A stretch of DNA of 64,000 bases from NCBI GenBank assembly GCA_965223325.1, contig CBDCWI010000001.1, positions 320,001 through 384,000 of the forward strand. Direction: 5' to 3'. Below, in pieces: positions 264 through 55,043 of the stretch. Under the pieces are notes generated by a model that worked only from the letters and a program-made list of their open reading frames with translations, was not told the DNA's origin and made no database searches. Made by a program: the position numbers and the translations under genes. Numbering within the stretch: position 1 is the stretch's first letter; each line of letters starts with the position of its first letter. Source of the stretch: Candidatus Multivoradales bacterium. Lineage in GTDB: Bacteria > Acidobacteriota > Thermoanaerobaculia > Multivoradales > Multivoraceae.

Positions 264-1931
<1,668 letters not shown>

Positions 1932-15325: not shown

Positions 15326-16036
15326 TCAGGAGGACTCCCTTGGAGCCTGTGGTCGCACCGAACTCGGTGTCACTCTCGACCACGGGCTCCAGTCGTAACT
15401 GTCGACCGGGTCGTGGCCGGCGAGGCTGCGGTCGAGAGATGGCAGGTCATCAAAGCCCCAGAACAGCTTCCCGTCGACGATCATGGTTGGCACTCCAAAT
15501 ACATCGCGCGCGACGGCCTGGTCGGTGAGTTCCCGGATGCGCGCCTTCGCCTCGGGAGTGTCCGCACGGTGGACGAAGTCATCACCAGGCAAACCGCCTT
15601 CGTTCAGCACGTCGCGCACGACTTCTCGATCGGTGATGTCTCGAGACTGTGCCCAGGCTGCGCGCAGAAGAGCCGTCACAGCGTTGTGGCGATCGTCGTC
15701 TGCCATTTCGAGGCCGCACACCCGCAGCGCGAGGAGCGGATTGAACGGGTGCGACACCGGAGGTGCCAACGGGATCCCCAGGTCGAGTGCCTTGCGCACC
15801 ACGTCACGACCCATCCAGCGCCGCTTGGCCGGAATCTCGGCCGGACCGAGCTGCCCCCACGCCTCGAGCAGGCCAGCGAACAGAACCGGAACCGGCCGTA
15901 GCGAGCGCTCGTGGCGCGCCGCCACGTCGCCGACCGCCTCCCAGGCCAGGTAGGCGTTGTGCGAAATCGGATCGAAGAAGAACTCGATCGGCTCCTTGCG
16001 TGAGCCGTCGACAGCATGCGGAGCAGACGGGGCCAT
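15326..16036 (-). CDS. 2-hydroxychromene-2-carboxylate isomerase / GST-kappa (DsbA-like)
   Basis: IEFFFDPISHNAYL, PAEIPAKRRW, HPFNPL, VFGVPTMIVDGKLFWGFD. Confidence 0.88.
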   Translation of the reverse strand: MAPSAPHAVDGSRKEPIEFFFDPISHNAYLAWEAVGDVAARHERSLRPVPVLFAGLLEAWGQLGPAEIPAKRRWMGRDVVRKALDLGIPLAPPVSHPFNPLLALRVCGLEMADDDRHNAVTALLRAAWAQSRDITDREVVRDVLNEGGLPGDDFVHRADTPEAKARIRELTDQAVARDVFGVPTMIVDGKLFWGFDDLPSLDRSLAGHDPVDSYDWSPWSRVTPSSVRPQAPRESS

Positions 16037-16037
16037 G

Positions 16038-16376
16038 TCAGGCGAAGTTCGCTTCGAGGTAGCGGTTGATGTCGTCTGACTCGTAGAGCCAGCGCACGCG
16101 GTCCTTGCCTGGAGTATCGGGCTCTTCGATGCGTAGACAGGGCACCTGCTTCTTGCCGCCGCCGGCAACCAGCTCGTCAAACGCGGTGCGGCTGCGCTTG
16201 ATGTTCTTCATCTCGAGGTCGAGACCGAGGCGCCTCGCGGTGCGCCGCACCTTGACGCAGTAAGGGCAGGTCGCAAAGTGATAGAGAGTCAATCGGTCAA
16301 GGAGGGCGTCGACCCGGGCCTGCGCCTCGGGGCTGCGCGCTGGCTTAGAAGGTGAAAAGAGATCAAGCAGTCCCAT
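16038..16376 (-). CDS. Glutaredoxin / GST N-terminal domain protein
   Basis: LYHFATCPYCVKVR, GGGKKQVPCL, WLYESDDI. Confidence 0.9.
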   Translation of the reverse strand: MGLLDLFSPSKPARSPEAQARVDALLDRLTLYHFATCPYCVKVRRTARRLGLDLEMKNIKRSRTAFDELVAGGGKKQVPCLRIEEPDTPGKDRVRWLYESDDINRYLEANFA

Positions 16377-31077: not shown

Positions 31078-32547
<1,470 letters not shown>

Positions 32548-35935: not shown

Positions 35936-36445
35936 CTAGCGGGCCGCCGCGTTGCGCAGCTCTTTGACGAAGTCTTCCGCCTCGAGCAGGCGTGCACCAC
36001 CGTCCGCAGTGCGCTCCATGCGGGTTACGCGCGAAATCGTCTTGGTACGTGAACTGTGCATGAACAGCGAGGGGTAACCCTGCACGCCATACATGTCTTT
36101 GAGCTGTACTTCGGCACGGCCGTTCTCGGCGTTGATACGCACCGCGATGATGTCGTCCATGTAGTCGTCGACCAGTTCCTCGGTCATCATCACGCGATCG
36201 AACTGCTGGCAGTAGCCGCACCAGGTGGCGTAGAAGTAGACGAACATCGGCTTGCCGGTTTTCTTCTGCTCCTCCATCGCTTGACCCATGCCCTCGGCAT
36301 TCTCGTACCAACCCGTCCAGTCGGGCTTGCCGTCACCGGCGGCCGTCGCCTGACTGGCAGACACGAGGACCGCACCGAGCATGAGAAGAGCGCCAAGCAG
36401 TGAAAGGCTGCGGTGGCGGGCGTTGGGTTCTGGATTCTGAGGCAT
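35936..36445 (-). CDS. Exported thioredoxin-family protein
   Basis: Signal peptide; YFYATWCGYC, YGVQGYP. Confidence 0.88.
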   Translation of the reverse strand: MPQNPEPNARHRSLSLLGALLMLGAVLVSASQATAAGDGKPDWTGWYENAEGMGQAMEEQKKTGKPMFVYFYATWCGYCQQFDRVMMTEELVDDYMDDIIAVRINAENGRAEVQLKDMYGVQGYPSLFMHSSRTKTISRVTRMERTADGGARLLEAEDFVKELRNAAAR

Positions 36446-36634
36446 GAGAGCGGTGTTCCTTGTGAGGCAGAGACCTTCGGGCAACGGCAGCGTGTGGTTG
36501 CTGGTTCTAGGCCGGTTCGGAGTCGGAGACGGAGGTGAAGAAACTGGGGCTGGTGTTGACCCGCCTCAGGACAAACGTCGGCCGGCGGCCATCTGTTCCC
36601 AGATCAGGCCAACAATCCATGAATTCTAGCAAAA

Positions 36635-38350
36635 CTAGCGAACTTGTCCGTTGTTCTTCGGACGCCCGGCCTTCGATCGCGAGTGGATCTGAGCGCCCGT
36701 CGGCCCGGGAAGCAGGCGGCGCCCATCGGCCAGGCGCCCCTCGGCGGCTTCGATCATCTCTTGCAGACCGAGCCGCCTGGTGGCCGAAACGGCCACCCCA
36801 TCGAGTTGGTGGGCAAGCGCCTGGGCTTCGTTCCAGCCGATGAGATCGGCCTTGTTCAGAACCAGGAGCCGCGGCACATCGCCGAGTCCGAGCCGCTCGA
36901 GCAGTTCGCGCACAGTGTCACGGCGAGCATCCAACCGGTCATCCGAGGCATCGACGACATGCAGCAGGAGATCGGCGTCGGCGAGTTCCTCGAGTGTCGC
37001 CTGGAAGGCCTGCAGAAGATCTTCGGGCAGCTCGGCGATGAACCCGACCGTGTCGGTGATGACCACTTCGCCCTCCCGCGGAAAGCGCAGTCGGCGACTG
37101 GTCGGGTCGAGAGTCATGAAGAGCTTGTCCGCTGCTTCGATGTCGCTGTTGGTCATCGCGTTCAAGAGGGTGCTTTTGCCGGCGTTGGTGTATCCAACGA
37201 TCGACAACACCGGGATCGAGCTCTCCCGGCGACGTCGGCGCCGCAGGTCACGCTGCTTGGAGAGCTTGCCGATCTCCTTCTCGAGCCTTCGGATGCGATC
37301 GTTGATGCGGCGGCGCCCGATCTCGAGCACCGTCTCACCAGGCCCACGACCACCAATGCCGCCCGCCAGTCGTGAAAGGCCGGCGTCTTTCTCGGTCAGC
37401 CGGGGCAGCGAGTAGCGCAGCTGCGCCAGCTCGACCTGCAACTTGCCATCACGGCTGCGAGCGCGCTGTGCGAAGACATCGAGAATCAACTGGGTGCGGT
37501 CGATCGTCTTGAGACCCGTCGCGTCTTCGAAGGCGCGCGCCTGAGCGGGCCTCAAATCGACATCAAAAATCGCCACGGTTGCAGAACGCCGCATGCCTTC
37601 GAGCACGATCTCGGTCAACTTGCCCTTCCCCACCACCGTCTTGGGGTGGAGACGCGAGCGCTTCTGACGCATGGTGCCAGCCACCTCGACATCCGCCGAG
37701 CGCACGAGTTCGAGGGTCTCCGCGAAGTGTTCGTCGTCAGGCTGCACGCCCAACACCAGGGCGCGTTCGCGCTCAACGCCATCTGCCCTTCCGCGAGCCA
37801 GCCTCGCGAGCTCAGCCTCGAGAGCCTGAATGGTGGCGTCGAAATCGAAGTCGAGACGGAAGAGGTCTGGCGCTTCGATGCGATCGAACGGTGGCGCATC
37901 GGCATCGACCTGCCCGTCGCCCAGGTCGACATGCGGCGCGAGATGTGCCAGCTCAACCCGACCAGGCTCGCCCTCCTCAGCCACCTCGATCATTGCCACC
38001 AGGTCAAGGCGCAGAAGCGCCAGGTCGTTTAAATCGTCAGCTGTCAGCGGCTCACCGCGCAGGTGGGTGTGCACCAGCCGCAGGCCACGAAAACGCCCAG
38101 TACCCCCGCGCAGGCGGCCAATGTCAGGAATCTCGAGAGTCGACGCGTCGCCAACGATCACGTCGCGAATGCTGCCCTCGCGAGCAATCAGAACGCCAAC
38201 CTGGCGCCCGATTTCATGCGAGATCGAAACCAGGTGGCGGGCCAACTCAGGCGAGACCAATTCGCCCGGTGCGACTTTGCGTCGGTAGGTGCGTTCGAGC
38301 GCCCGGCGCTCTGAAGCCTTGAGGCCCTGGGTGTTTCCGTGGATGTTCAT
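36635..38350 (-). CDS. hflX: GTPase HflX (long N-terminal form)
   Basis: [37 protein letters not shown]. Confidence 0.95.
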
Positions 38351-38455
38351 TCGCGACCGGCGATGGTACCAGTGCAGGCCATCCCTGTGTCGCCCGCACA
38401 GTATTATCCTCCTCACCTCTTCTGCCAAAGAAGGCTCGTTCGAGAAAACACGCCG

Positions 38456-39658
38456 ATGACCACTCCTCACCCTGAGCCCTGCCGCGGCCTACTCACCAAA
38501 GGTCTCGAAGAGGAGGTCTACACCGGCACCGCCGACGGCGAGGTGGTCGGCCTGTCGCACGAGATCTCGAAAGCTCTGGTCGGTTTCACCACCGAGCCCG
38601 ACTCCCGCAACGTCGAGTTCACCACCGCGCCGTACCGCGACTACGACCTGCTGCTCGACCGGCTGATGACCAAGCGCTGCCAACTGCGCCGCTGGCTAGA
38701 AGCCCGTGACTACACCCTGGTTCCCGGCAGCACCCTGTCGCTCGCCAAGCCTGGCGACTTCCAGATCTCGGACGAGAACAAGCTCTACTACCGACAGATT
38801 CGCGACACCTACGGCACCGACGTCGTCACCGCCAGCACCCACATCAACGTCGGCCTACCGGACACGGTCGAAGAAGCACACTACGAAACGATGATGCGCG
38901 CCTGGCGCCTGGCCCGAGTGGACGCACCCATATTCCTCGCCCTCACCGCCGCCTCGCCATTCCTGGGCGGCGAGGCCACCGGCTTCCACTCCACCCGCTG
39001 GCACGTTTTTCCACCAACGCCAGAGCACGTCCCCTTCTTCGCCGAGCACCAGCCTTACGTCACCTGGTTCGACGCTCAGCTCGAAGCCGGTACCATGTTC
39101 AACTCGCGCCACCTCTGGGTCGCCGCACGCCCCAACGGCCCGCAGCCCCCACGCGATCTCAACCGCCTGGAACTGCGCATCTGCGAACGCATCTCCGAAC
39201 CACTCCGTATCCAGGCCCTCGTCGCCCTCTTGGAAGCCCGCGTCTGGCAACTAGCCGCCGACCCCGAACTAGACCCCCTCTCCCCCGCCTACTCGAACGG
39301 CAAAACCACCGAAGAGCGCTCGAACGAACTCGTCGAACTCTGCCGACACAACGAAGCCGCCACCGCACGCGACAGCCTGGAAGCAACAGTGTTGGACTGG
39401 CGCACCGGCAAAGACATCAAGATGCGCGACTGGATCGACCGTCACCGCGACGAAGTCTCCCCACACGCCACCGCCCATTGCTTCGCAGACCGACTAGAGC
39501 CTCTCGACGAAATCCTCGAACACGGCAACCACGCCCAACGCTGGCTCGAGTGGCACGCCAACGGAATGTCGGTAAGCAGCATCATGCGCAAAGCCGCCGA
39601 AGAGCAACTAGCCGCCGACTGGAAGTACGACCCCGCCTGCTCCCAGATCGCCCCGTAG
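38456..39658 (+). CDS. gshA: Glutamate--cysteine ligase, cyanobacterial type
   Basis: LLTKGLEEEVYTG..GEVVGLS, EPDSRNVEFTT, VVTASTHIN, SPFLGG, RHLWVAARPNGP, LNRLELRIC; near gshB and gor. Confidence 0.88.
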   Translation: MTTPHPEPCRGLLTKGLEEEVYTGTADGEVVGLSHEISKALVGFTTEPDSRNVEFTTAPYRDYDLLLDRLMTKRCQLRRWLEARDYTLVPGSTLSLAKPGDFQISDENKLYYRQIRDTYGTDVVTASTHINVGLPDTVEEAHYETMMRAWRLARVDAPIFLALTAASPFLGGEATGFHSTRWHVFPPTPEHVPFFAEHQPYVTWFDAQLEAGTMFNSRHLWVAARPNGPQPPRDLNRLELRICERISEPLRIQALVALLEARVWQLAADPELDPLSPAYSNGKTTEERSNELVELCRHNEAATARDSLEATVLDWRTGKDIKMRDWIDRHRDEVSPHATAHCFADRLEPLDEILEHGNHAQRWLEWHANGMSVSSIMRKAAEEQLAADWKYDPACSQIAP

Positions 39659-41091: not shown

Positions 41092-41637
41092 CTACGGGGC
41101 CTGCTCGACCGACCGGGCACGCTCCACAGCACGAACCAGCTCGCGGAGCTCGGGCTCCGGTTCGCCGATGGCCCGGAGCGCATGGTAGAGCTCGACGACG
41201 TAGGCGACGTTGTTGCCGCTCGGACCATGGGCGCTTTGGATCTGTGTCGCCATCTCTTCATAAGAAGTCGGGCCGAGCCAGTTCCTATTCTCCGGCGTGG
41301 CAACCCAGGTGATCGCCTCGACCTCCTGCGGGGCGCCCGCGCCCAGGAGATGCAACCTCACGTCCAGACGGCGGTAGCCTCCCTTCTCACGATGATCGAG
41401 CGCCGCCAGGGTCCGCGCGGCGTTCAGACCGAGCCGGTACGCCACACCGAGGTTCGACGCCCCCGGATCTTCGATCAACGTCACAACCCTCCCCGGAGCA
41501 CCCGGTACCCCGCGATGGTCGGTCGATCCCTGCCAGAAGCGTCGCGCCCAGCCGTCCAGCCTTGCCGGGTGTCGTTCTTCGAAGTCGAAGTCCGGTCGCC
41601 AGACCAGGGAACCGTAGCCGTAGACCCACACGTTCAT
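41092..41637 (-). CDS. chaC: Glutathione-specific gamma-glutamylcyclotransferase (ChaC)
   Basis: WVYGYGSLVW, FWQGSTDHRG..PGRVVTL, LDHREKGGY, GPSGNN. Confidence 0.92.
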   Translation of the reverse strand: MNVWVYGYGSLVWRPDFDFEERHPARLDGWARRFWQGSTDHRGVPGAPGRVVTLIEDPGASNLGVAYRLGLNAARTLAALDHREKGGYRRLDVRLHLLGAGAPQEVEAITWVATPENRNWLGPTSYEEMATQIQSAHGPSGNNVAYVVELYHALRAIGEPEPELRELVRAVERARSVEQAP

Positions 41638-41702
41638 TTCCAAATCCTAGGAGTGAACCGAAGAAACATCCAGGCGTCCACGCCCGCTATCATCCCCTCG
41701 CC

Positions 41703-42662
41703 ATGCGACATCTCTTCATCATCGACCCGCTCGAGCGCTTGCTGCCAGACGCCGACACCACGATCGTCTTCATGCGGGAAGCGCAGAAGCGCGGCTACGA
41801 AGTCGCCACCTGTGAGGTCACCGACATAGGCCTCGACCGTGGAGTTCCCTACGCCGCCTGCCAGCGCGTTTCCCTGAGAGCCCCCGGCAACGAGCCCTGG
41901 TTTGAAAGAGACGGTGAAAGAACGCGAGCCGTACTTTCTGAATTCGACGCGGTCTGGATGCGCAAAGATCCGCCGTTCGACATGGACTTTTTCTACGTCA
42001 CGCACCTCCTGTCGATGATCGACGGCAAGACTGTCGTCGTCAACGATCCAGCAGCACTGCGTGACGCCAACGAGAAGTTGTTCGCGCTGCGCTTCGCTGA
42101 GTATTGCCCCGACACATTGGTCTCGCGTGACATGGCGGAGATCACTGCCTTTCGCGACAGCCTGGGCGGCGAGTGTGTCGTCAAGCCACTCGACGGCGCC
42201 GGCGGCGAGGGCGTTTTCCACCTCGCCCCTGGTGACCGTAACGTTGGGGCGATTCTCGAAAGCTCGACCGCCCATGGCACGCGCTACCTGATGGCGCAGC
42301 GCTACGTCCCCGAGATCCGCACTGGTGACAAACGCATCATCCTGGTCGAAGGCGAGCCTCTGGGCGCCGTTCTGCGAGTGCCCACCGACGAGGACGCACG
42401 CGCCAACTTTCACGCTGGCGGCGCCGCAGCCAAGACCGAGATCACGGCGCGCGAGCGGGAGATTTCCGCCGCCATGGCACCAATGCTGCGCTCGATGGGA
42501 ATCGTGTTCGCTGGCATCGATGTGATCGGCGACTGGTTGACCGAAGTCAACGTCACCAGCCCGACTGGCATCCGTGAGATTGCCCGTCTCGATGGCGTGC
42601 ACCTCGAAGAGGCCGTCATGGATGCTGTCGAGACCCGGGTCCGCGAGAGGCAACGATCGTAG
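41703..42662 (+). CDS. gshB: Glutathione synthetase
   Basis: WMRKDPPFDM, NEKL, KPLDGAGGEGVF, GDKRI, GIDVIG..LTEVNVTSPTG. Confidence 0.96.
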   Translation: MRHLFIIDPLERLLPDADTTIVFMREAQKRGYEVATCEVTDIGLDRGVPYAACQRVSLRAPGNEPWFERDGERTRAVLSEFDAVWMRKDPPFDMDFFYVTHLLSMIDGKTVVVNDPAALRDANEKLFALRFAEYCPDTLVSRDMAEITAFRDSLGGECVVKPLDGAGGEGVFHLAPGDRNVGAILESSTAHGTRYLMAQRYVPEIRTGDKRIILVEGEPLGAVLRVPTDEDARANFHAGGAAAKTEITAREREISAAMAPMLRSMGIVFAGIDVIGDWLTEVNVTSPTGIREIARLDGVHLEEAVMDAVETRVRERQRS

Positions 42663-43446: not shown

Positions 43447-43542
43447 GAGAATCGGCGAGACCGGATCCCGGGGGTGCGCTGGAGGTGGCGTAGGATCACT
43501 CTCCCTCCCTCCCTTCTCTCGACCTTCGTTCAGGAGACCTCG

Positions 43543-44940
43543 GTGGCCAACTCCGCCTCACCCACGTCGCGCTACGACTACGACCTGATCTGCATTGGTG
43601 CCGGTTCGGGAGGTGTGCGCGCATCGCGCTTCGCCGCCTCCTACGGCGCGCGCGTTGCCGTCATCGAAGACGGTCCGCTCGGTGGTACGTGCGTCAACGT
43701 GGGATGCGTTCCCAAGAAGCTCTTCTACTACGCCTCGCGGTTGCATCACGACGCAGGTCTTCTACCCGATTTCGGGTGGGAGGCTTCGCAACCTGCCTTC
43801 GACTGGTCACGGCTGATCCAGAACAAGAACCAGGAAATCGCCCGCCTCAACGGGATCTATCGACGCATTCTCGCGGGCGCAGGGGTCGAGATCATTCTCG
43901 GCCGCGGACATATCGAAGGCCCGAACACCGTCAGCGTCGGCGAAACGACGCTCAGCGCACGCTACATCCTGGTGGCCGTCGGCGGGCGGCCCTGGATGCC
44001 AGACTTTCCAGGAAGCGAGCAGGCGATCGTCTCCGACGCGGCGTTCTATCTCGAAGAGATGCCGGAACGTGCCCTGGTCGTTGGCGGCGGCTACATTGGG
44101 GTCGAGTTTGCCGGGATCTGGAACGGGCTCGGAGCCCAGGTCACTCAGGTCTACCGCGGTGAAATGTTTCTTCGTGGCTTCGATGGCGACGTGAGATCGG
44201 CCCTCGCTCTAGAGATGCAGAACAAGGGCATCGACCTGCGCTTTCACACCGAGGTCACGGCAATCGTCCGCCAGGCCGACGGCTCGCTCCGCGCAACGCT
44301 CAGTTCAAAGGATCGCGACGACGAAGAACTCGACGTCGATCTCGTGCTCTACGCCACCGGTCGCGTCCCGCGCACCGACGACCTGGGGCTCGAAAACACC
44401 GCCGTCCGGGTGGGTGCGCGCGGCTTCATTGAAGTCGACGACCAGCTTTGTACCGCGGAGCCCAGCATCTACGCCATCGGCGACTGCATCGAGCGGCCAT
44501 TCGATCTCACTCCAGTTGCCCTCCACGAAGGCATGGCTGTTGCCGCGACCCTCTTTGATGATCGCCCGACCAGTCCCGAGTACGACAGCATCGCCACCGC
44601 CGTCTTCAGCCAACCACCGATCGGTACCGTGGGTCTGACAGAAGAAGAGGCACGCGAGCGCTTCGGTGCCGACAACATCGAGATCTATCGCAGTCGCTAC
44701 CGCGCCTTGAAGCTGACCTTGGGCGACGATCCCGAGCGCTCGCTGATGAAACTCGTCGTCGACCGCGGGAGTCGTCGCGTTCTAGGAGTGCACGTTCTCG
44801 ACTCCGACGCCGCTGAGATCGTGCAGGGCTTCGCCGTCGCCGTAAAGATGGGGGCCACCAAAGAACAACTCGACGCCACGATCGGCATTCATCCAACATC
44901 GGCGGAAGAGCTCGTGACCCTACGCGACCCGGTCAGCTGA
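43543..44940 (+). CDS. gor: Glutathione-disulfide reductase
   Basis: GAGSGG, GGTCVNVGCVPKK, GGGYIGVE, IGIHPTSAEE; AGGAG plus GTG. Confidence 0.95.
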   Translation: MANSASPTSRYDYDLICIGAGSGGVRASRFAASYGARVAVIEDGPLGGTCVNVGCVPKKLFYYASRLHHDAGLLPDFGWEASQPAFDWSRLIQNKNQEIARLNGIYRRILAGAGVEIILGRGHIEGPNTVSVGETTLSARYILVAVGGRPWMPDFPGSEQAIVSDAAFYLEEMPERALVVGGGYIGVEFAGIWNGLGAQVTQVYRGEMFLRGFDGDVRSALALEMQNKGIDLRFHTEVTAIVRQADGSLRATLSSKDRDDEELDVDLVLYATGRVPRTDDLGLENTAVRVGARGFIEVDDQLCTAEPSIYAIGDCIERPFDLTPVALHEGMAVAATLFDDRPTSPEYDSIATAVFSQPPIGTVGLTEEEARERFGADNIEIYRSRYRALKLTLGDDPERSLMKLVVDRGSRRVLGVHVLDSDAAEIVQGFAVAVKMGATKEQLDATIGIHPTSAEELVTLRDPVS

Positions 44941-45083: not shown

Positions 45084-47036
45084 ATGAACCGTTCTCCGCT
45101 GATCGTCCTCGGACTTCTTTTCCTCGCCGTCGCTCTATCGGGTGTTTCGGCCGATGACTCGCCGGATCCCTCGAGCTGGACCAGCTATGGCGGCGACACC
45201 TGGAGTACGAAGTACTCTCCGCTCGACCAGATCGATGCGACCAACGTCAAGAAGCTCGAGATCGCCTGGCGTTGGGGCTCGCCAGAAAACGACCTTGTCG
45301 CCAAGGACCCCAAGTACCGCCCAGGGCTTTACGAAGCCACGCCCTTGTTCATCGACGGCGTTCTTTACACGGCGACGTCCCACAGCGGCATCGCGGCGAT
45401 CGACCCAGGGACCGGCAAAACGCTCTGGCATTTCGACTCCCTGAGCCAGGAAGGCGGCAGGCCTCCCAACCTCGGCTTCATCCATCGCGGGGTCTCTTAC
45501 TGGAGTGACGGTGAGGCGACGCGAATCTTCATTGGTACGGGCGACTCGCGATTGATCGCCGTCGATCACGTAACCGGTGAACCGATCGGCGAGTTCGGCA
45601 ACCAGGGAAGCGTGGACTTGAGCAAAGGCTTGCGGCGCCCAATCCCAAGGCGCTACTACGGCTTGAACTCCCCGCCGCTGGTTTGCGGCGATGTCGTGGT
45701 GACCGGTGCGACAATCGCCGACCTCGCCATCAGTCGCAACGCGCCCCCGGGCGATGTGCGGGGCTTCGATGTGCGCACGGGCGAACACCTGTGGACTTTC
45801 CACTCCATTCCGCAGGCCGGCGAGTTCGGCAACGAAACCTGGAAGAACGAGTCGTGGAAGGGCACCGGCAACACCAACGTCTGGAGCCTCATGAGCTGCG
45901 ACGAGGAGCTCGGCTACGTGTACCTCCCGTTCGGAACGCCAACCAGCGACTACTACGGAGGAGAACGTCACGGCGACAACCTCTTCGCCGAGAGCCTGGT
46001 CGCTCTGGACGTTGAAACCGGAGAACGCATCTGGCATTTCCAGGCCGTGCATCACGGAATCTGGGACTACGACTTTCCATGCGCGCCCAACCTCGTCGAC
46101 ATCACGGTCGACGGCGAGAGGATCAAGGCAGTCGCACAGGCGAGCAAGCAGGGGTTCATCTACGTCTTCGATCGCGTCACCGGCGAGCCGGTTTGGCCCA
46201 TCGAAGAGCGCAAAGTCCCTGCGTCTTCGGTTCCGGGCGAGAAGCTGTCGCCAACCCAGCCCTTCCCGACCCGCCCGGCACCTTTCGAACGCCAAGGAGT
46301 GAGGCCCGAAGACCTGATCGACTTCACGCCCGAGTTGGCTGCCGAGGCGCGCAAGATCCTCGCCGAGTTCGACTACGGTGAGCTCTTCGTTCCTCTCGGC
46401 ACAGGGCGACCGACGATGTACCTGCCTGGATGGCTCGGTGGTGCCAACTGGACGGGAGCCGCCGTCGATCCCGAGACCGGTGTTCTCTATGTGCCGTCGA
46501 TCACCAGCCCGATCGCCTTCACATTGACCGAAACCGACTCGAACCGCTCCGCGTTCCGCTATACCGCCACTCCTACTCCGGTTATCGGACCTGACGGCCT
46601 GCCGCTGTTCAAACCGCCTTACGGGCGGATCACCGCGATCGACCTCAACAGCGGCGAGCACCTTTGGATGTCACCGCTTGGCGACGGTCCGCGTGATCAT
46701 CCACGACTGGCCCATCTCGACCTTGGACCGCTGGGCGCTCCACAGCGGGGTGCGCCGCTCGTCACGAAGACTCTCCTGTTCGTGACCCAGGAAGGGACCA
46801 TCGGTGAGATCCGCTTCAGCGAAGACCTGCACGCGGCAGAAGCCGAGACCTTCACATCCGACCCAGGGCTGCGGGTGTTCGACAAGCAGAACGGAAACCT
46901 GTTGACCGAGATCGAACTACCGGCCAACGCGATCGCAGCGCCCATGACCTACCTCCACGAAGGCAAGCAGTACATCGCGGTGTCGATCGGCGGTGGCAGT
47001 CAGCACTCCGAGCTGGTTGCCCTGGCGCTACCTTGA
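45084..47036 (+). CDS. PQQ-dependent dehydrogenase (glucose/quinate DH-like, no N-terminal membrane domain)
   Basis: KYSPLDQI, EATPL, WHFQAVHHGIWDYD, KPPYGRITAID, PMTY..GKQYI. Confidence 0.9.
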   Translation: MNRSPLIVLGLLFLAVALSGVSADDSPDPSSWTSYGGDTWSTKYSPLDQIDATNVKKLEIAWRWGSPENDLVAKDPKYRPGLYEATPLFIDGVLYTATSHSGIAAIDPGTGKTLWHFDSLSQEGGRPPNLGFIHRGVSYWSDGEATRIFIGTGDSRLIAVDHVTGEPIGEFGNQGSVDLSKGLRRPIPRRYYGLNSPPLVCGDVVVTGATIADLAISRNAPPGDVRGFDVRTGEHLWTFHSIPQAGEFGNETWKNESWKGTGNTNVWSLMSCDEELGYVYLPFGTPTSDYYGGERHGDNLFAESLVALDVETGERIWHFQAVHHGIWDYDFPCAPNLVDITVDGERIKAVAQASKQGFIYVFDRVTGEPVWPIEERKVPASSVPGEKLSPTQPFPTRPAPFERQGVRPEDLIDFTPELAAEARKILAEFDYGELFVPLGTGRPTMYLPGWLGGANWTGAAVDPETGVLYVPSITSPIAFTLTETDSNRSAFRYTATPTPVIGPDGLPLFKPPYGRITAIDLNSGEHLWMSPLGDGPRDHPRLAHLDLGPLGAPQRGAPLVTKTLLFVTQEGTIGEIRFSEDLHAAEAETFTSDPGLRVFDKQNGNLLTEIELPANAIAAPMTYLHEGKQYIAVSIGGGSQHSELVALALP

Positions 47037-47412: not shown

Positions 47413-47654
47413 GGCTTGACTCCTCGAGAGACGACCGGGCGAGATAAGAGCCCAGCAGGGGGTGTTCATGGGAACGCCTAACGAGACTAGCGCAGACCGA
47501 ATCGCGCCCCCGCACCGAACCCTAAACTCCGCAGTCGGGGGGAGTCTCCCAGTGGGCCGACTGGCTGTCTGCGGTGCGAGGGTTGAAACTTGTGGGACTC
47601 TGGGGAGTCTCTACTTCAGTCCCGCTTCCCCCCGGCTGTCCTCAGGGAGTCCCC

Positions 47655-50114
47655 GTGCTGATTCAACGATTCCTGCGTAGTTTCTTTGCCCACCCGGGCT
47701 TTACCGGCGTCGCGATTACTACTCTCGCTCTCGGTCTGGCGGCGGTGCTCACGATCTACTCGCTGGTCGACGGGGTGCTTCTGCGGGCCCTGCCGTATCC
47801 CGAGAGTGATCGGCTGGTCTCGGTCGACCACACGGCACCGGCGCTCAACCTGCCAACGATGGGTTCTTCGCGCGGGCTCTATCTCCACTATCTCGCGACG
47901 ACCACCAGCTTCGACGAGATCGGTCTCTTCGACGGCTACCGCGTGACCCTCACCGGCGAGGGTGAACCGGTGCGCGCCCAGGCCTCGAGCGTTACTCCTT
48001 CGTTCTTCCGCGTCCTGGGGACAACGCCTCGCCTGGGAAGGACCTTCTCGGAGGCGGAGGGGCGCCCCGGATCCAATGCCAACGTCGCCGTGATCGCGCA
48101 TGGGCTCTTCGAGCAGCGTTTCGGTGGCGACCCGACGGTCACTTCGGGCGGCACCATGCAGATCGACGGAGTCACCCATCAGATCATCGGCGTCATGCCT
48201 CAGGGATTCGCCTTTCCGTTCGCCAATACCGACCTCTGGCGAGTACGGCAACTGGACGCTGCCTCTGCTCCGCTGGGCTCGTTCAACGACCAGCTCTTCG
48301 CCCGTCTTCGCGACGGTGTCTCGATCGAACAGGCGCGCGCCGACCTCGAGCAGTCGAGTCACGGCCTCGAGCAGAGCTTTCCTGAAGACAGTGCCGCGCC
48401 GATCCTAGACCGTTCCGGTTTCACCGCCACAATCGAAACGCTCCTCGACCGCACCGTCGGTGACACCAGAGACCTTCTCTGGGTACTCCTGGCAACCGTC
48501 GCCGTGATCCTTCTCATTGCCTGCGCCAATGTCGCCAACCTCTACCTGGTGCGGGTTGAAGAACGCGGGCATGAGCTGGCAGTCCGTGCTGCGCTGGGAG
48601 CCGGCGGCCGACGACTGATCGGTCAACTGATGGCCGAGAGCCTTGCGCTGGCTGGGGTCGCCGGCGTGCTCGCGCTCACCCTGGCGACCCTCGCTCTTCG
48701 TCTCATAAAGTCCTACGGCCCCACCGATCTTCCGCGCATTCACGAAGTCGCGATCGATGCCCGCGTCATGGCGTTCGCAGTTGCCGTTTCACTGTTCGCA
48801 GGCGCCCTCTTTGGCTTGCTCCCCGCTTTGCGCGCCGCCAGGGGACACGGCGCGCGCGCCGCGGTTCTGGCTCTGCGCGAAGGTGGCCGTGGCACCGCCG
48901 GCCGCGAACGCCACCGACTGCGCACTGCTCTGGTCACTGCCCAGGTGGCTCTCGGGCTCCTTCTATTGGTGGGCAGTGGCTTGATGTTTCGGAGTCTGCA
49001 GCAGCTGGCGAATGTCGACCCGGGCTTCGTCGCCGACGACACGCTGACCTTTCAGCTCACCCTGCCCGAATCGAAGTACCCGGAGGGCGAAGAGCGCGTT
49101 CGCTTCGCCGAGACCGTCATCGAGCGCGTCCAGGCCTTGCCGGGAATCGACGCGGTTGCCGTCGGCAGCACGACGCCGATGTCAGGCGTGGGCAACGGCT
49201 CCGGTTATTCAGTGCGCGATCAACCGACAACCGACGACTCCATCCCACCGGTCTTCATGCAGGCACACACCGGCCCCGGCTACCTCGAAACCATCGGCGT
49301 CCGGACGCTCGCCGGCCGCCTCCCCGCCCCCGACGACTACCAGAACCGCCGTGGCAATGTCGTCGTCACCAAGAACCTCGCCGATCGCTTCTGGCCAGAC
49401 ACCAGCGCGCTCGGCAAAGAAATCGCCCCCGGCACACGCGGTGCCGAAGATCGTTGGCTGAAGATCGTAGGCATCGTCGACAATGTCCACCAGTTCGGAA
49501 ACTCTGTGGAGGCGCCGCTACTCGTTTTTCTGCCGCTGCTCGACATTGTCGGCGAGAACCCTCAGGACCTCGGCGGCAACCTGTCGTTCGTCGTCGACTC
49601 ACAACTCGCCAGCGACACGGTTCTGGCGCAGATTCGCAACGAGATCTGGTCGATCGACCCGGAAGTGCCCCTCACTTCGGTACAGACTCTCGAGGACATC
49701 TTGCACGCCGACCGGGCCGAGCGCGCCTTCTCCGTCACCGTCCTTGGCATCGCCTCGGGTCTCGCCTTGCTGCTCGCCGCGCTCGGCCTCTACGGCGTGG
49801 TGTCCTACGTCGTAACGCGCCGCACCCGCGAGCTCGGTGTGCGCATGGCTCTGGGAGCGCAGCAGAGCGACATCGCAACGTTGGTGGTGCGCTCCGGGGT
49901 GACGGTGGCGGTGGCGGGCATCGTCATCGGAACCGTCGTCGCAGTCGGCCTGACCCGCTTCCTCGAATCACTGCTCTTCGAAGTCAACGCCCGCGACCCG
50001 GTGGTCTTCGGCAGCGTCGCGCTCGTTCTGCTGGCGGTCACTTGTATCGCGGTCCTCCTCCCGGCACTGCGCGCTTCGCGCGTCGACCCGATGATCGCCC
50101 TGCGTCACGAATAG
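47655..50114 (+). CDS. ADOP-family duplicated MacB/FtsX permease
   Basis: PGFT..TLALG, LLIACANVANL, QVAL..LLVGSGL, GLYGVVSYVVTRRTRELGVRMALGA, RVDPMIALRHE. Confidence 0.92.
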   Translation: MLIQRFLRSFFAHPGFTGVAITTLALGLAAVLTIYSLVDGVLLRALPYPESDRLVSVDHTAPALNLPTMGSSRGLYLHYLATTTSFDEIGLFDGYRVTLTGEGEPVRAQASSVTPSFFRVLGTTPRLGRTFSEAEGRPGSNANVAVIAHGLFEQRFGGDPTVTSGGTMQIDGVTHQIIGVMPQGFAFPFANTDLWRVRQLDAASAPLGSFNDQLFARLRDGVSIEQARADLEQSSHGLEQSFPEDSAAPILDRSGFTATIETLLDRTVGDTRDLLWVLLATVAVILLIACANVANLYLVRVEERGHELAVRAALGAGGRRLIGQLMAESLALAGVAGVLALTLATLALRLIKSYGPTDLPRIHEVAIDARVMAFAVAVSLFAGALFGLLPALRAARGHGARAAVLALREGGRGTAGRERHRLRTALVTAQVALGLLLLVGSGLMFRSLQQLANVDPGFVADDTLTFQLTLPESKYPEGEERVRFAETVIERVQALPGIDAVAVGSTTPMSGVGNGSGYSVRDQPTTDDSIPPVFMQAHTGPGYLETIGVRTLAGRLPAPDDYQNRRGNVVVTKNLADRFWPDTSALGKEIAPGTRGAEDRWLKIVGIVDNVHQFGNSVEAPLLVFLPLLDIVGENPQDLGGNLSFVVDSQLASDTVLAQIRNEIWSIDPEVPLTSVQTLEDILHADRAERAFSVTVLGIASGLALLLAALGLYGVVSYVVTRRTRELGVRMALGAQQSDIATLVVRSGVTVAVAGIVIGTVVAVGLTRFLESLLFEVNARDPVVFGSVALVLLAVTCIAVLLPALRASRVDPMIALRHE

Positions 50115-50144
50115 CGACACCACCAGCTTGCTAGCATCGCTCGC

Positions 50145-50726
50145 ATGCCGTTCATCCAGATCACCCCACCCGACGAAGCCACCGGCCTGCTCGCCCGCCT
50201 CTACAAGGCAGCCATCGACCGCGCCGGGCGCGTGTTCAACGTGCTGCAGCTCCAGAGTCCAAGGCCCCATGTTCTGCAGGCATCAACGCGGCTCTATACC
50301 GAGGTCATGCACTCCCCGAGGAGTCCCCTGAGTCGGGCACAACGCGAAATGATCGCGGTCGTCGTCTCACGCGCCAACGACTGCCACTACTGAACGCGTG
50401 CCCACGGCGACGACCTCCGGGCTGAGGTCGAGGACACCCAAGCGGCGAGCGCCCTGACCGCCGCGGTAATGACCGACTACCGCCAGGCGCGACTCAGCGC
50501 TCCCGACCGCGCGATGCTCGACTTCGCGGTCGAGCTGACGCGGCAACCTGCCGCCATCACCGAAGCGGCGATCGCCGAGCTGCGGGAGGCCGGCTGGAGC
50601 GACACGGCGATTCACGACATCGTCCAGGTCACCGCGCTCTTCAACTACTACAACCGCCTCGCCGACGGCCTGGGAATCGACCCGGAGCCCGATTGGGACG
50701 AAAGCCCCGCGGCCCTGAAGAGCTAG
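50145..50726 (+). CDS. AhpD/carboxymuconolactone-decarboxylase-family peroxidase-related selenoprotein (Sec at TGA 50391-50393)
   Basis: ORFs 50145-50393 and 50469-50726 are in frame; readthrough gives LSRAQREMIAVVVSRANDCHY-U-TRAH..DYRQARLS..FNYYNRLADGLG, with U at the second Cys of the family CxYC motif. Confidence 0.88.
50411..50430 (+). promoter_or_regulatory. Bacterial SECIS-like hairpin
   Basis: cgacctc-cgggct-gaggtcg; loop starts 24 nt after the TGA and has G at position 2. Confidence 0.7.
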
Positions 50727-50875
50727 AATCAGGGAGCGACGAGCCGGTCCTCTCCCTCCCCCGGTTCGACCAGGACCCCTATATCCCTTCCACCTCACGA
50801 CGGGACGGGGAAGCGACGGGCTTCGTATGCACTCACGAGGCGAATCCACGCCTCGCGCTCGGAGCTCAGTCCCCC

Positions 50876-52498
50876 TTGCCAACCTCACCGTCCCAACCAA
50901 CCCAGGCCCGGCCAACCCAGCCCCGCCCGGCACGCCCTCGACCCGGAAGGCCCGGTGCCCATCGCCGCAACTTGATCATCGCCGCGGTGGTTTCCTTCTG
51001 GATGTTGACCACTGGCCTCCTGGTCTTTCGTGAGCGTAGCCAGTCGACCCGCTTCCTGCCCACTTCGCGCGCCGTTCTGCTCGAGTCGACCGAGAGTTGG
51101 CTCGGCCTGTTCGCCGATGACCAGCCGGTCGGCTACGTGCACATGCAACAGATACCGGAAGTGCGCCACGGCGTAGACGGCCGCACGCTGATTCTCAACG
51201 TCGACCTACAGCTCGACCTCTTCGGCCGCGACGCTGCCCTGCAGCTGAACGGCGACGCCTGGAACGCCCTCCTACCCGCCGAAGTGAGGGCGCGGTCAAA
51301 CCGCGGCGCGCCAGAAGATCGCATCCCGACCGCCGAGCTGGGCTTCTCGGTACGTTCTGGACCCTACGACTTTTCCTTCGACGGCGAAGTCGACGACGGG
51401 CTGCTCACAGCCGAGATCCGCAACGCCGGCGAGGTGCTGCCGCTCGAAGTGCCGATCAGCGACGATGTGCTGGTCTCGGCCGGCCTCGGTGGCGCGACAT
51501 CGCTGCCGGTCCTCAACGTCGGTGAACAGGTCACCATTCAGAGCTTCGATCCGGTGACGTTGCGCGCTTCTGACACCGAGGTCCGGTGCGTCGCGCGCGA
51601 AGTCATCGAGGTCGACGGCGTGACCCATCGCAGCCGGGTCCTGGAAGTCGAGTCGCTGGGCTTGACGACCAAGGCGTGGATCGACGACTCCGGCCAGGTG
51701 CTCAAAGCCAGAACGCCGATTGGCCTCGAACTGCGCCGCATCTCAGCCGATCAGCTCGCACAGACCCGCTTCGGTGGCGATGCCGGTGCCCTGCTCGGGC
51801 TGAGCGCCATCCACCCCACCGGTGTGACCCCCAACCGAGGCGTCACGCACATGCAGTTCCGGGTTACCGCCGGTCCTTCTGACCTGCCGATTTCGCCCCT
51901 CCAGTTCGAGACCGGCGGCCTGTGGACACGCACGACCAACTCCGAGCCTTCCTCCCCCGAGCGCGGGGCTCCCCACCCAGCCCAGCCAGCTGGCCAGGAA
52001 ACTCCCGAGCTCTGGCTGGCCGCCGACGCCTTTGTCCAGTCCGACCATCCGCGCATGCAGGAGCAATCGCGCGCGATCGTTGACGGCCTCAGTGACCCGA
52101 AGGCCCGTGCCCTGGCGATTCACGACTGGGTCTTCGAAGAGATCGCCAAGGAACCCGCCCTGGGAATCCCCTCGGCCCTCGAGATTCTCGAACACCGGCG
52201 CGGTGACTGCAACGAACACACGGTGCTCTACGCCGCCCTCGCACGAGCTGCCGGCCTGCCAACGCGCATCGCCATCGGCGTCGTGTGGAGCGAAGACCTC
52301 GGCGGCTTCTACTACCACGCCTGGCCCGAAGTCTGGTTCGAAGACCGGGGCGGCTGGTCATGGATCGACCCCACACTCGGTCAGCCGTCGGCTGACGCGA
52401 CCCACATCAAACTCCTGGACGGCGGCATCGAAACCTGGCCGCGACTTCTGCCCTGGCTAGGGCAGCTGGAACTCGACATCGAGGACGTCGCCCCATGA
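50876..52498 (+). CDS. Transglutaminase-like protein with N-terminal TM (start uncertain)
   Basis: GDCNEH, ARAAGLPTR, YYHAWPEV, IDPT (Cys-His-Asp triad). Confidence 0.88.
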   Translation: MPTSPSQPTQARPTQPRPARPRPGRPGAHRRNLIIAAVVSFWMLTTGLLVFRERSQSTRFLPTSRAVLLESTESWLGLFADDQPVGYVHMQQIPEVRHGVDGRTLILNVDLQLDLFGRDAALQLNGDAWNALLPAEVRARSNRGAPEDRIPTAELGFSVRSGPYDFSFDGEVDDGLLTAEIRNAGEVLPLEVPISDDVLVSAGLGGATSLPVLNVGEQVTIQSFDPVTLRASDTEVRCVAREVIEVDGVTHRSRVLEVESLGLTTKAWIDDSGQVLKARTPIGLELRRISADQLAQTRFGGDAGALLGLSAIHPTGVTPNRGVTHMQFRVTAGPSDLPISPLQFETGGLWTRTTNSEPSSPERGAPHPAQPAGQETPELWLAADAFVQSDHPRMQEQSRAIVDGLSDPKARALAIHDWVFEEIAKEPALGIPSALEILEHRRGDCNEHTVLYAALARAAGLPTRIAIGVVWSEDLGGFYYHAWPEVWFEDRGGWSWIDPTLGQPSADATHIKLLDGGIETWPRLLPWLGQLELDIEDVAP

Positions 52499-53268
52499 CC
52501 ACCAAACTCCCCCACGCCACCACCCCGATGATTCGCACCCGCGGTCTTCACAAACGCTACGGCGACAAAGACGCCGTCTGCGACCTCGACCTCGACATTC
52601 CAGCGGGTGAGTTCTTCTGCTTCCTGGGCCCCAACGGCGCCGGTAAGACCACCACGATCAAGATGCTCAACGGTCTGGTGCGGCCCACCGACGGTCGCGC
52701 TGCCATCGGCGGGCACGACATTGCCGACGAGCCCGTACGCGCCAAGGAGCTGCTCGGATACATCCCCGACACGCCGTTCCTCTACGACAAGCTCACGGGG
52801 CGCGAGATCATGCGCTTCATCGCCGGTCTCTACCGCCTACCGAAGCGTGACTTCGAAGTCCGCTGCGATGAGCTTCTCGACACCTTCGAGATTCTTCACA
52901 AGGCCGACCAGCTGGTCGAGAGCTACAGCCACGGCATGCGCCAGAAACTCTCCTTCGCCTCTTGCTTCCTGCACGACCCCAGAGTCGTCATCGTCGACGA
53001 ACCGTGGGTCGGGCTCGACCCCAAGAACATCCGTAAGGTCAAACAGTTTCTGCGCGAGCGCACGCGCACCCACGGCCTCACAGTCTTCATGTCGACCCAT
53101 ACCCTGTCGATTGCCGAAGAGCTCGCCGACCGTATCGGGATCATCAACCACGGCCGCCTCCTGCGCATCGGCACGGTCGCTGAAGTCAAGGCCTTAGCCA
53201 ACAACCCCGGCACCCTCGAAGACGTCTTTCTCGAGCTCACCCAGGGCGACGACGAGGCCGCCGCTTGA
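52495..53268 (+). CDS. ABC transporter ATP-binding protein
   Basis: GPNGAGKTT, YSHGMRQK, VDEPWVGLDP; ATGA overlap. Confidence 0.95.
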   Translation: MTTKLPHATTPMIRTRGLHKRYGDKDAVCDLDLDIPAGEFFCFLGPNGAGKTTTIKMLNGLVRPTDGRAAIGGHDIADEPVRAKELLGYIPDTPFLYDKLTGREIMRFIAGLYRLPKRDFEVRCDELLDTFEILHKADQLVESYSHGMRQKLSFASCFLHDPRVVIVDEPWVGLDPKNIRKVKQFLRERTRTHGLTVFMSTHTLSIAEELADRIGIINHGRLLRIGTVAEVKALANNPGTLEDVFLELTQGDDEAAA

Positions 53269-55043
53269 ACGCCCCGGCACCCGCCGAGGTGCAATCTGAA
53301 GGGCATCACTCCCAGGGGAACGGTGAGCAGTTCTTCCTGCAACTACCGTCGATCTTCCAGGCACGCGGACGAATCGCCCGCCATCTGATTGCCTCGGTGC
53401 GCCGCGAGTCGAAGCTCAAGGTCGGCTTCGTGAGCCTCTCGGCCGTCGTCCTCTGGGGCGGCGCCTTCTTGATCTCGTTTGGGATCCTCAGCCTCCTCTC
53501 CCGTCAGGGCAGCCTCGTCCTCGGCACCGAGGCGGGAATCGACCTCACCGATCTGATCTTCGAACGCATGCTTTCGGTGCTCGCGATGACCGTCTTCTCC
53601 CTGCTGGTGGTATCGAACATCCTGGTCTCGTTCGCGACGCTCTATCGGTCGCGCGAGACCCCCTGGCTGCTGCAGGCACCCTTGTCGACGGGCAAGTTCT
53701 TCTTCGCCCGGTTTCAGGAGTGCGTCAGCTTCTCGTCCTGGGCGCTGGCCTTTCTGGGTTCACCGATTCTCTTGGCGTATGGCGTGGTTCGCGAGGCTGC
53801 GCCGACGTTCTATCTCGCTGCCGTCTTGCTGTTCGTTCCCTTCGTGGCCATTCCTGCCGCTATTGGATCGCTCTTTACGATGACCCTGGTGCGCCTGCTC
53901 GCCGGCATGCGCAAACGAAGCCTGTTCGTCGTGGCGGTCGTCGCTTTCGTCACCGCGCTGGCGGTCCTGCGTGGGCTGATGCGGCAATCCGACACCGGTA
54001 CGGCCCTGCAAGGCGCCGACACGGTGCAGGCGGTGCTCGCTCTCATGGGGCGCACGCAGGCTCCTTGGCTCCCCAGTCACTGGCTTGCAGAAGGACTCCT
54101 CGGTGCCGCAGCCGGTGAGTTCTCGGTCTTCTTGTTCAACGCCATGCTGCTGGTGTCCAACGCCCTGATGGCCATCCTGGTCGCGACTCTGGTCGCCGAG
54201 CGGATCTTCTTCTACGGTTGGACCAACCTGGTTTCCGCCGACGAGGGCCGCGACGCGGTGAGAAAGCGCGGTCCGCTGAGCTTGATCGAACCTCTGCTCA
54301 GACCGATTCCCGAGCCCTGGCGGTCTCTGACGGTCAAGGACCTGCGCCTCTTCTGGCGCGACCCCGCACAGTGGTCCCAGTTCCTGATCTTCTTCGGCCT
54401 GTTGGCGATCTATCTGGCCAACATTCGCGCCGAGGGCGCCTGGCGCGAAGAACCCTTCCGCAGCTGGATCGCCCTCCTCAATATCGCCGTCACCATGCTG
54501 GTGCTGGCGACCCTGACCACCCGATTCGTCTTCCCGCTCATCAGTCTTGAGGGACGCCGCTTCTGGATCCTCGGTCTGGCACCGCTCACGAGGCGCACCC
54601 TCCTGTGGCAGAAGTTCTGGCTCAGTGCGGTCTCTACCGCGATGTTTACCGTGCCCGTCGCCATGCTCTCGGCACATCGTCTCGACCTCGATCGTTTCGC
54701 GCTCCTCTTGACCCTGGTGAGCGTGGCGGCCACCACCATCGCACTGTCTGGACTCGCGGTTGGGCTGGGCGGGCTCTATCCCAACTTCGAGGAAGACAAC
54801 CCGTCGCGCATTACCTCAGGAATGGGCGGCACCTTGAACTTCATTCTCAGTATGGTCTTCGTCACCTGCGTCACGATTGTCCAGGGAGTGCTGCTGCAGT
54901 GGCGACGCAGCGGCGACCTTTCCGCCATCTCGAGTGCTCAAGCGACCGCAACCGGCATTGCAGTCATTACCCTCCTGACGCTCGCCACATGGTGGATTCC
55001 CATGCTGCTCGGCGCCCGAAACCTGGCGCGCATCGAGGTCTAG
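53265..55043 (+). CDS. Putative ABC exporter permease
   Basis: Multi-TM; KDLRLFWRDPAQWSQ, RFVFPLISLEG; TTGA overlap. Confidence 0.88.
   Translation: MNAPAPAEVQSEGHHSQGNGEQFFLQLPSIFQARGRIARHLIASVRRESKLKVGFVSLSAVVLWGGAFLISFGILSLLSRQGSLVLGTEAGIDLTDLIFERMLSVLAMTVFSLLVVSNILVSFATLYRSRETPWLLQAPLSTGKFFFARFQECVSFSSWALAFLGSPILLAYGVVREAAPTFYLAAVLLFVPFVAIPAAIGSLFTMTLVRLLAGMRKRSLFVVAVVAFVTALAVLRGLMRQSDTGTALQGADTVQAVLALMGRTQAPWLPSHWLAEGLLGAAAGEFSVFLFNAMLLVSNALMAILVATLVAERIFFYGWTNLVSADEGRDAVRKRGPLSLIEPLLRPIPEPWRSLTVKDLRLFWRDPAQWSQFLIFFGLLAIYLANIRAEGAWREEPFRSWIALLNIAVTMLVLATLTTRFVFPLISLEGRRFWILGLAPLTRRTLLWQKFWLSAVSTAMFTVPVAMLSAHRLDLDRFALLLTLVSVAATTIALSGLAVGLGGLYPNFEEDNPSRITSGMGGTLNFILSMVFVTCVTIVQGVLLQWRRSGDLSAISSAQATATGIAVITLLTLATWWIPMLLGARNLARIEV

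Follow-up and report, generated by a model that had tools for sequence, protein, structure and literature searches.

The DNA considered here, referred to as the window, is a stretch of 64,000 nucleotides from the genome of a Candidatus Multivoradales bacterium of the class Thermoanaerobaculia, phylum Acidobacteriota (contig CBDCWI010000001.1, positions 320,001 to 384,000). The best hits of the GroEL encoded at 270-1928 are at 81-87% identity; 11 of them carry an organism in their name, all from Acidobacteriota and six of these from Thermoanaerobaculia. The window carries a gene of the AhpD-like family whose reading frame contains a TGA at codon 83, a codon that, from the comparative evidence set out below, is almost certainly read as selenocysteine (Sec, U). 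Under genetic code table 11 the gene is listed as two open reading frames (ORFs) that share one frame, 50145-50393 (82 amino acids, ending at the TGA) and 50469-50726 (85 amino acids), separated by a gap of 75 nt, or 25 codons. Reading the TGA as U yields a 193-residue product with one recoded codon only, U83, in the context SRANDCHY-U-TRAHGDDLRAEV (coordinates of this and other features are collected in Table 1). An earlier note on this DNA, made from the sequence alone, had described the two ORF fragments as a single frame interrupted by one TGA at codon 83, which coordinates and translation verify, and had expected standard gene calling to split the gene, which is what the table-11 ORFs do. 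The 25 intervening codons, taken by the note to be coding, are conserved among relatives and include the invariant residues H87, L91 and R92. The N-terminus, M-P/A-x-I, is common to the window protein and full-length homologues. Judged on its conserved frame, the region is one gene, not two.

The placement of the product in the AhpD/CMD family, also proposed in the note, is borne out by profile searches. The Pfam model CMD (PF02627) matches at 1.4e-13, with 51.1 bits against a cut-off of 23, and the NCBIfam model TIGR01926 (peroxidase-related enzyme) scores 155.8 bits against a cut-off of 81.8. The latter aligns residues 5-183 with positions 4-178 of a 178-position profile, and therefore spans the TGA. 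A structure predicted with AlphaFold2 (AF2) from 30 sequences is one compact domain that is all-helical, as is the AhpD fold, with a predicted local distance difference test score (pLDDT) of 94.6 and a predicted template modelling score (pTM) of 0.90; in this predicted model helix 81-94 begins at the CxxU motif. A Foldseek search with the model returned template modelling (TM) scores of 0.83-0.86 to 3c1l, 2pfx and 6k40, at 30-38% identity. Sequence searches against solved structures retrieved 3c1l (2.1e-27), 6k40 (4.2e-27), 2pfx, 2oyo and 2prr, the values ranging to 1.9e-20. These five proteins, among them DR1765 (6k40) and Mlr4105 (3c1l), have the same fold, length and E/C/Y/C/H spacing as the window protein; they carry Cys at the second position of the motif, where the window protein has a predicted Sec, and their genes need no recoding signal.

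The catalytic signature Glu-x11-Cys-x-(Tyr/His)-Cys-x3-His is present in the window protein with the second Cys changed to Sec, and E68, C80, Y82 and H87 are invariant across the 121 aligned protein sequences described below. Its spacing, E-x11-C-x-Y-C-x3-H, is that of the proton-relay residues reported for Pseudomonas aeruginosa PA0269 (Glu36, Cys48, Tyr50, Cys51 and His55) and for Mycobacterium tuberculosis AhpD (Glu118, Cys130, His132, Cys133 and His137) (PMC3141380). The second motif Cys of M. tuberculosis AhpD, Cys133, is described as the exposed residue that attacks AhpC (PMC3141380; PMC6626918), and this enzyme (1gu9/1lw1; TIGR00777), with CxxC and a Glu/His relay at the same spacing, can serve as a mechanistic model for U83. 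It is nonetheless distant from the window protein, with a Foldseek TM score of 0.55, 13-14% identity, and catalytic helices that are reported to occupy another region of the polypeptide (PMC3141380).

Three narrower assignments were rejected. The score to the canonical AhpD model TIGR00777 is 20.1 bits against a cut-off of 191.95. The model NF041238 AhpD_rel_CFYUT, which corresponds to "hypothetical protein 1" of the Sargasso Sea survey, represents a related domain with C-F-Y-U-T where the window protein has C-H-Y-U-T; it is 357 positions long against the 193 residues of the window protein, which matches profile positions 212-342 only, at 72.1 bits against a cut-off of 175, and is not a member. 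The gamma-carboxymuconolactone decarboxylase branch of Pfam CMD is described as being without the CxxC motif and the proton-relay residues (PMC3141380). Since CxxU and all of the relay residues are present, the window protein falls in the AhpD-like branch rather than the decarboxylase branch.

A protein database search returned 744 relatives, of which the best 120, full-length proteins with 41-54% identity and 83-100% query coverage, were aligned with the query to give 121 sequences. The column of U83 holds C in 102 of the 121, in agreement with the position that the earlier note had given the TGA, at the second Cys of the family motif. The remaining entries are W (15), R (3) and G (1), and these non-Cys entries are concentrated in the closest matches. 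Trp was seen at this column in P0003, P0005, P0009, P0010, P0012, P0013, P0016-P0018, P0021, P0023, P0025, P0036, P0076 and P0111, Arg in P0006, P0020 and P0027, and Gly in P0014. Trp at this column probably reflects gene models in which TGA was translated as such, which would make these entries unrecognised selenoproteins in public protein sets. As a test of this interpretation the database proteins were compared with the products of the related genomic loci, and none was at least 90% identical to any locus.

At the DNA level, a scan of one genome per species, for which the 16 closest sequences were aligned as the query, gave 588 confirmed relatives. The best 80 of these, together with the window, make up the 81 sequences compared, the 508 others lying outside the counts. 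All 80 loci carry TGA at the codon aligned with TGA-83, and their record titles name Acidobacteriota, Planctomycetota, Actinomycetota, Chloroflexota, Gemmatimonadota, Latescibacterota, a Polyangiaceae and others. The scan query carried Cys at the Sec position, so the ranking could not favour TGA. Several relatives read C-F-Y-TGA-T at the motif. The frame remains open for at least 97 codons past the TGA in 81 of 81 sequences, and identity to the window at codon positions 1, 2 and 3 is 0.65, 0.69 and 0.43 upstream of the TGA and 0.60, 0.60 and 0.45 downstream of it with the hairpin excluded, a pattern that indicates coding sequence on both sides. The earlier note had named relatives with TGC or TGT and no hairpin as the outcome that would speak against a selenoprotein; among the loci compared the result was the opposite, with TGA in 80 of 80 relatives and an in-register hairpin in 79 of 81 sequences.

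The hairpin in question is a predicted bacterial Sec insertion sequence (SECIS) that consists of a 5′ arm, cgacctc (50411-50417), an apical loop, cgggct (50418-50423), and a 3′ arm, gaggtcg (50424-50430). The stem starts 17 nt and the apical loop 24 nt from the UGA, and the folding energy is -10.2 kcal/mol for the hairpin alone and -11.3 kcal/mol in context. The bacterial SECIS model given in section 5 of a 2026 review specifies a stem of 4-16 bp, a loop of 3-9 nt, a UGA-to-loop distance of 16-37 nt and a minimum free energy of -7.5 kcal/mol or lower, with a G among the first two nucleotides of the loop, as a rule with G or U after it (PMC13188914). With 7 bp, a 6-nt loop, 24 nt and -10.2 kcal/mol the window hairpin lies within these published limits, and the note's description of a 7-bp stem-loop at bacterial SECIS spacing stands. 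Rfam, run on the 64-kb window at gathering thresholds, reported no SECIS family.

It is comparison among relatives that gives the hairpin its weight. The 48 nt from each TGA align gap-free in the 81 sequences, and the helix corresponds to columns 21-27 paired with columns 34-40. Of the cells in these columns 88.9% are paired, a share that falls to 27-45% if the 3′ side is displaced by 1-3 columns. Changes on both sides are seen in five of the seven pairs, and the covariation score was reached by none of 500 shuffles, a control that overstates significance because the compared sequences are related by ancestry. Pair 24/37 is C-G in 59 sequences; 12 have U-A and six U-G. Column 24 is a silent site, the third base of an Asp codon, and column 37 is the first base of a Val/Ile codon. 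Pair 21/40 occurs as CG, GC, UG and UA. In 71 of the 81 sequences six or more of the seven pairs form in register, and the loop of all 71 starts C-G-[G/T]. As far as aligned sequences can tell, the combination of a conserved TGA and hairpin covariation is far beyond chance.

Nine of the 81 sequences (L019, L029, L032, L033, L040, L041, L064, L070 and L073) have an upstream hairpin instead of the common form, in which columns 13-20 pair with columns 24-31 around a loop GGA. This upstream hairpin, ACGGGGAGGAUCUCCGU with loop GGA, is 17 nt past the UGA and is contained within the first 31 nt after each TGA. The two forms share a segment, GAUCUCCG, which provides the common hairpin with its 5′ arm and the upstream hairpin with its 3′ arm, such that GA(C/U)CUCCG serves as a 5′ arm in the common form (71/81) and as a 3′ arm in the upstream form (9/81). 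The AEV peptide encoded downstream is not kept in eight of the nine upstream-hairpin loci; L064 keeps AEV and can form both hairpins. Shifted hairpin variants were found in two of the 81 sequences. These arrangements suggest that a SECIS can move along the mRNA by arm swapping while the Sec codon stays fixed, and that constraints on the RNA partly account for the conserved peptides DLRxEV and HGEDLR.

With regard to the machinery for Sec insertion, some relatives carry it beside the AhpD-like gene. A tRNA-Sec lies ~0.1-1.4 kb upstream in three of the 80 loci (L009, L013 and L028), the one in L028 scoring 68.6 bits to Rfam RF01852 at 100 nt from the gene. In six of the 80 (L009, L013, L014, L015, L028 and L052) tblastn located selB and selA ~0.1-1.6 kb downstream. 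All six are Actinomycetota of the Gaiellales/Thermoleophilia type, and in L028 and L013, respectively, the NCBIfam scores are 346 and 340 bits for SelB (TIGR00475) and 528 and 507 bits for SelA (TIGR00474). The proximity of tRNA-Sec and selB-selA physically ties the family to the Sec apparatus in one lineage, and the presence of sel genes beside the gene in some relatives means that those relatives use Sec. The Sec machinery of these aerobic soil Actinomycetota lineages may depend for its upkeep mainly, or even solely, on the AhpD-like gene as client. The joint proposal, that two mutually exclusive SECIS hairpins share a segment and that the gene is the main or sole client of the Sec machinery in Gaiellales/Thermoleophilia-type Actinomycetota, is tentative, a possibility rather than an expectation. 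A targeted literature search, which returned PMC1794560 alone, is too small a basis for calling the dual SECIS forms and the gene order selC, ahpD-like, selB-selA unpublished; no description of either was found.

Collectively, these observations make it very likely that the gene encodes a functional Sec-containing AhpD-like oxidoreductase. A ribosome that reaches UGA-83 would meet a hairpin 17 nt downstream whose apical loop, CGG..., would recruit SelB.GTP.Sec-tRNA(Sec), Sec would be inserted in place of termination, and translation would carry on until the TAG at 50724. On the model of AhpD and DR1765, the product would be a selenol/thiol oxidoreductase in which U83 is the nucleophile that attacks a peroxide or an oxidised peroxiredoxin-type partner. 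C80 would then resolve the intermediate as a selenenyl-sulfide, and E68, Y82 and H87, together with a water molecule, would form the proton relay.

Several observations weigh against this interpretation, in addition to the common ancestry that inflates the shuffle controls. The published SECIS criteria are a weak test by themselves, since in our own simple implementation of the model 9.3% of the TGA trinucleotides throughout the window, which has 64% G+C, also pass (152 of 1627). Shuffling does not weaken the fold of the 76-nt stretch (z = 0.45, with 132 of 200 shuffles folding as well), for which reason the fold energy is not counted as evidence; taken by itself, the hairpin does not exceed chance expectation. 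It also overlaps the codons of a conserved peptide, DLRxEV, and hence some of its conservation could reflect the protein, although the covariation of a silent column (24) with one that changes an amino acid (37) argues against purely protein-level conservation. Hairpin conservation was moreover gauged on TGA-bearing loci only. Cys forms are found among the close protein relatives (P0002 and P0004, at 51-54% identity to the window protein), which implies that Sec is not obligatory for the fold, and biochemical activity is known for Cys homologues only. No peroxiredoxin/AhpC partner was found among the 45 window ORFs scanned with Pfam, and no ahpC beside the gene. Finally, the 64-kb window yielded no tRNAs with ARAGORN and no Rfam matches, hence no tRNA-Sec; Pfam detected no sel family in those 45 ORFs, which were chosen from the 93 of at least 180 amino acids, and tblastn of the L028 SelA and SelB against the window found nothing. 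As the window holds no Sec machinery, we infer from sequence that such machinery is encoded in the genome and that Sec insertion occurs in the window's own organism.

Among the alternatives, the one that survives best accepts a Sec-containing protein and disputes its role, proposing that CxxU serves some other reductive chemistry, as in the dehalogenating Bmp8, or a redox relay only, rather than peroxide detoxification. Foldseek also matches the predicted model to the debrominase Bmp8 (6ohj) at a TM score of 0.75 and 17% identity, there is no AhpC/Prx gene nearby and no neighbour conserved across the 80 loci, and reviews refer to the substrates of the AhpD-like family as unknown (PMC3141380, PMC8945050). 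The closest solved relative with functional data points the other way: this is DR1765 of Deinococcus radiodurans (6k40, 4.2e-27, TM 0.86), whose loss by deletion is reported to cause a sensitivity to H2O2 that depends on the CxxC motif (PMC8945050). All five of the AhpD proton-relay positions are kept as well, and a role other than peroxide detoxification is considered unlikely, if still worth bearing in mind.

A second alternative holds that the UGA is decoded without selenium, either by near-cognate insertion of Trp, Cys or Arg or in an intact-looking relic within a lineage that has lost its Sec machinery. It draws on the point that the Sec machinery of the window's genome is a prediction, and on the W (15), R (3) and G (1) entries among the 121 at the Sec column, which, if real, would mean that other residues are tolerated there. 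The W entries are more simply explained, we infer, as TGA misread as Trp in gene models. In the relatives with informative flanks tRNA-Sec, selB and selA stand beside the gene, and plain read-through would not need a conserved SelB-type hairpin with the loop C-G-[G/U]. Decoding without selenium is accordingly judged to be very improbable.

A still less credible alternative treats the gene as a pseudogene or an error, in which a TGC or TGT codon has become TGA by a nonsense mutation or a sequencing or assembly mistake, leaving an 82-residue fragment or no product. The step from a Cys codon to TGA is a single base change, Cys forms exist at 51-54% identity, and the window shows no Sec machinery. 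Against these points stand the TGA of 80 of 80 relatives from many phyla, including the syntenic ortholog in L007, a downstream half that is open for at least 97 codons in 81 of 81 sequences with a coding pattern of substitutions, and a hairpin with compensatory changes after the TGA, and there is hardly any room left for an inactivated or misread gene. That the locus holds two separate small genes of 82 and 85 amino acids, both of which are listed as ORFs, the second with its own ATG at 50469, is next to impossible given that the 25 intervening codons are conserved (invariant H87, L91 and R92), that both pieces fall within one domain in the family profile and in five solved structures, and that the ATG at 50469 lies inside a helix of the AF2 model.

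Elsewhere in the window TGA functions as a stop codon, terminating 20 of the 40 Pfam-supported ORFs for which a stop codon was tallied, and a general reassignment of TGA (code 4 or 25) was rejected on this ground. A scan of the window for a second selenoprotein, which looked for an in-frame TGA with at least 40 open codons of high third-position G+C on either side, produced 22 candidates, among which the TGA at 50391 alone has both a redox motif and homologue support. The other candidates, judged by their coordinates, are seemingly antisense or out-of-frame shadows of annotated genes. An antisense ORF overlaps the selenoprotein gene itself (50367-50933 on the minus strand, 188 amino acids in the window) and is also open opposite the gene in 58 related loci; it most likely stems from high G+C and codon bias and does not represent a gene.

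Table 1. Features of the 64-kb window that are mentioned in the text, with positions in the window unless a related locus is named
Feature	Position	Strand	Remarks
AhpD-like selenoprotein coding sequence, predicted (TIGR01926/COG2128-type)	50145..50726	+	193 codons plus TAG stop (TAG at 50724)
In-frame TGA, codon 83, predicted Sec	50391..50393	+	second position of the CxxC-type redox motif C80-H-Y-U83
Active-site segment	50346..50405	+	E68 (50346-50348), C80 (50382-50384), Y82, U83, H87 (50403-50405)
Predicted bacterial SECIS hairpin	50411..50430	+	7-bp stem and 6-nt apical loop CGGGCU; overlaps the D-L-R-A-E-V codons
Upstream neighbour, duplicated MacB/FtsX-type permease	47574..50114	+	Pfam MacB_PCD and FtsX, two copies each
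Downstream neighbour, transglutaminase-like	50693..52498	+	Pfam Transglut_core; listed TTG start
Thiol-redox genes: DsbA-like, thioredoxin-like, GCS2-type glutamate-cysteine ligase, glutathione synthetase, pyridine-nucleotide disulfide oxidoreductase	15329-16180, 35939-36484, 38339-39655, 41562-42659, 43474-44937	-, -, +, +, +	Pfam
Two pyrroloquinoline quinone (PQQ)-dependent dehydrogenases	28380-30566, 45084-47036	+	one fused to a cytochrome c domain
PhoPQ-activated-pathogenicity-related-family protein	31078-32547		
GroEL	270-1928		
AhpD-like gene within a Sec-machinery cluster	L028 9807-13589		related locus

The immediate neighbours of the selenoprotein gene are a permease upstream and a transglutaminase-like gene downstream. 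The permease, which is not conserved in related loci, stops 30 nt before the selenoprotein ATG on the same strand, so that co-transcription is possible; a scan of 49800-51200 for promoters and terminators returned no site of either kind. The tblastn match of the transglutaminase-like ORF to L007, a contig of a Thermoanaerobaculia metagenome-assembled genome, starts at ORF residue 93, near 50970. The true start of that ORF is probably there; the 34 nt that it shares, as listed, with the end of the selenoprotein gene then likely arise from ORF calling and not from a real overlap. The order AhpD-like (TGA), transglutaminase-like, ATP-binding cassette (ABC) ATPase and ABC_tran_2 is the same in the window (50145-55043) and in L007 (7449-12466), where the neighbours have 45-73% protein identity to those of the window and the AhpD-like ortholog, at 57% identity, keeps the TGA.

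To look for conserved operon partners, the 1837 ORFs that lie up to 3.5 kb from the TGA in the 80 loci and the window were compared with each other by blastp, all against all. The clusters found in more than 11 loci were the gene's own two halves and the antisense frame, the last being the largest, and all others were in six loci or fewer. With no neighbour conserved across the 80 loci, context gives no functional clue beyond the Actinomycetota sel cluster and the synteny with L007. The window as a whole is rich in thiol-redox genes. DsbA-like and thioredoxin-like proteins are selenoproteins in some organisms, and the scan for in-frame TGA codons found no credible one in the thiol-redox genes of the window. 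The PQQ-dependent dehydrogenases and the PhoPQ-family protein are unrelated to the selenoprotein gene.

The family to which the gene belongs has been described before, as the earlier note had said in referring to environmental surveys. AhpD-like CxxU selenoproteins have been catalogued since 2005, when 27 sequences assigned to COG2128 were reported as new from the Sargasso Sea (PMC1088965), and in the Global Ocean Sampling survey AhpD-like 1 (COG2128) was the fourth most numerous family, with 299 selenoproteins and 902 Cys homologues (PMC2398784). They occur in sequenced genomes (PMC1794560), are entered in the 2026 review as "AhpD-like protein, TIGR01926, CxxU" (PMC13188914), and have a family page in BSepDB (PMC13326102). 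The AhpD-like 1 family of Zhang, Gladyshev and co-workers has the same TIGR01926 model, the same CxxU position and a SECIS with a G in the apical loop. As far as the published descriptions go, nothing essential differs in the window copy, which carries the subclade motif Y-U-T/I-x-x-H-x-x-DLRxEV and comes from an Acidobacteriota (Thermoanaerobaculia) genome and not from marine reads.

The label "hidden selenoprotein" in the earlier note overstates the novelty, the family being among the most abundant of the catalogued bacterial selenoproteins (PMC1088965, PMC2398784, PMC13188914). Family, CxxU motif and SECIS type are all catalogued, and the gene is an annotation correction, not a discovery; it changes nothing in what is known about selenoproteins. 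Genes of this kind are usually truncated, called pseudogenes or overlooked, according to the account that accompanies BSepDB (PMC13326102), and the correct annotation at this locus is a 193-residue selenoprotein rather than two fragments. For the organism, the gene marks the window's Thermoanaerobaculia (Acidobacteriota) genome as a likely user of selenocysteine. This predicts that selA, selB, selD and selC are encoded elsewhere in the genome, and that part of the peroxide/redox defence of the bacterium would require selenium.

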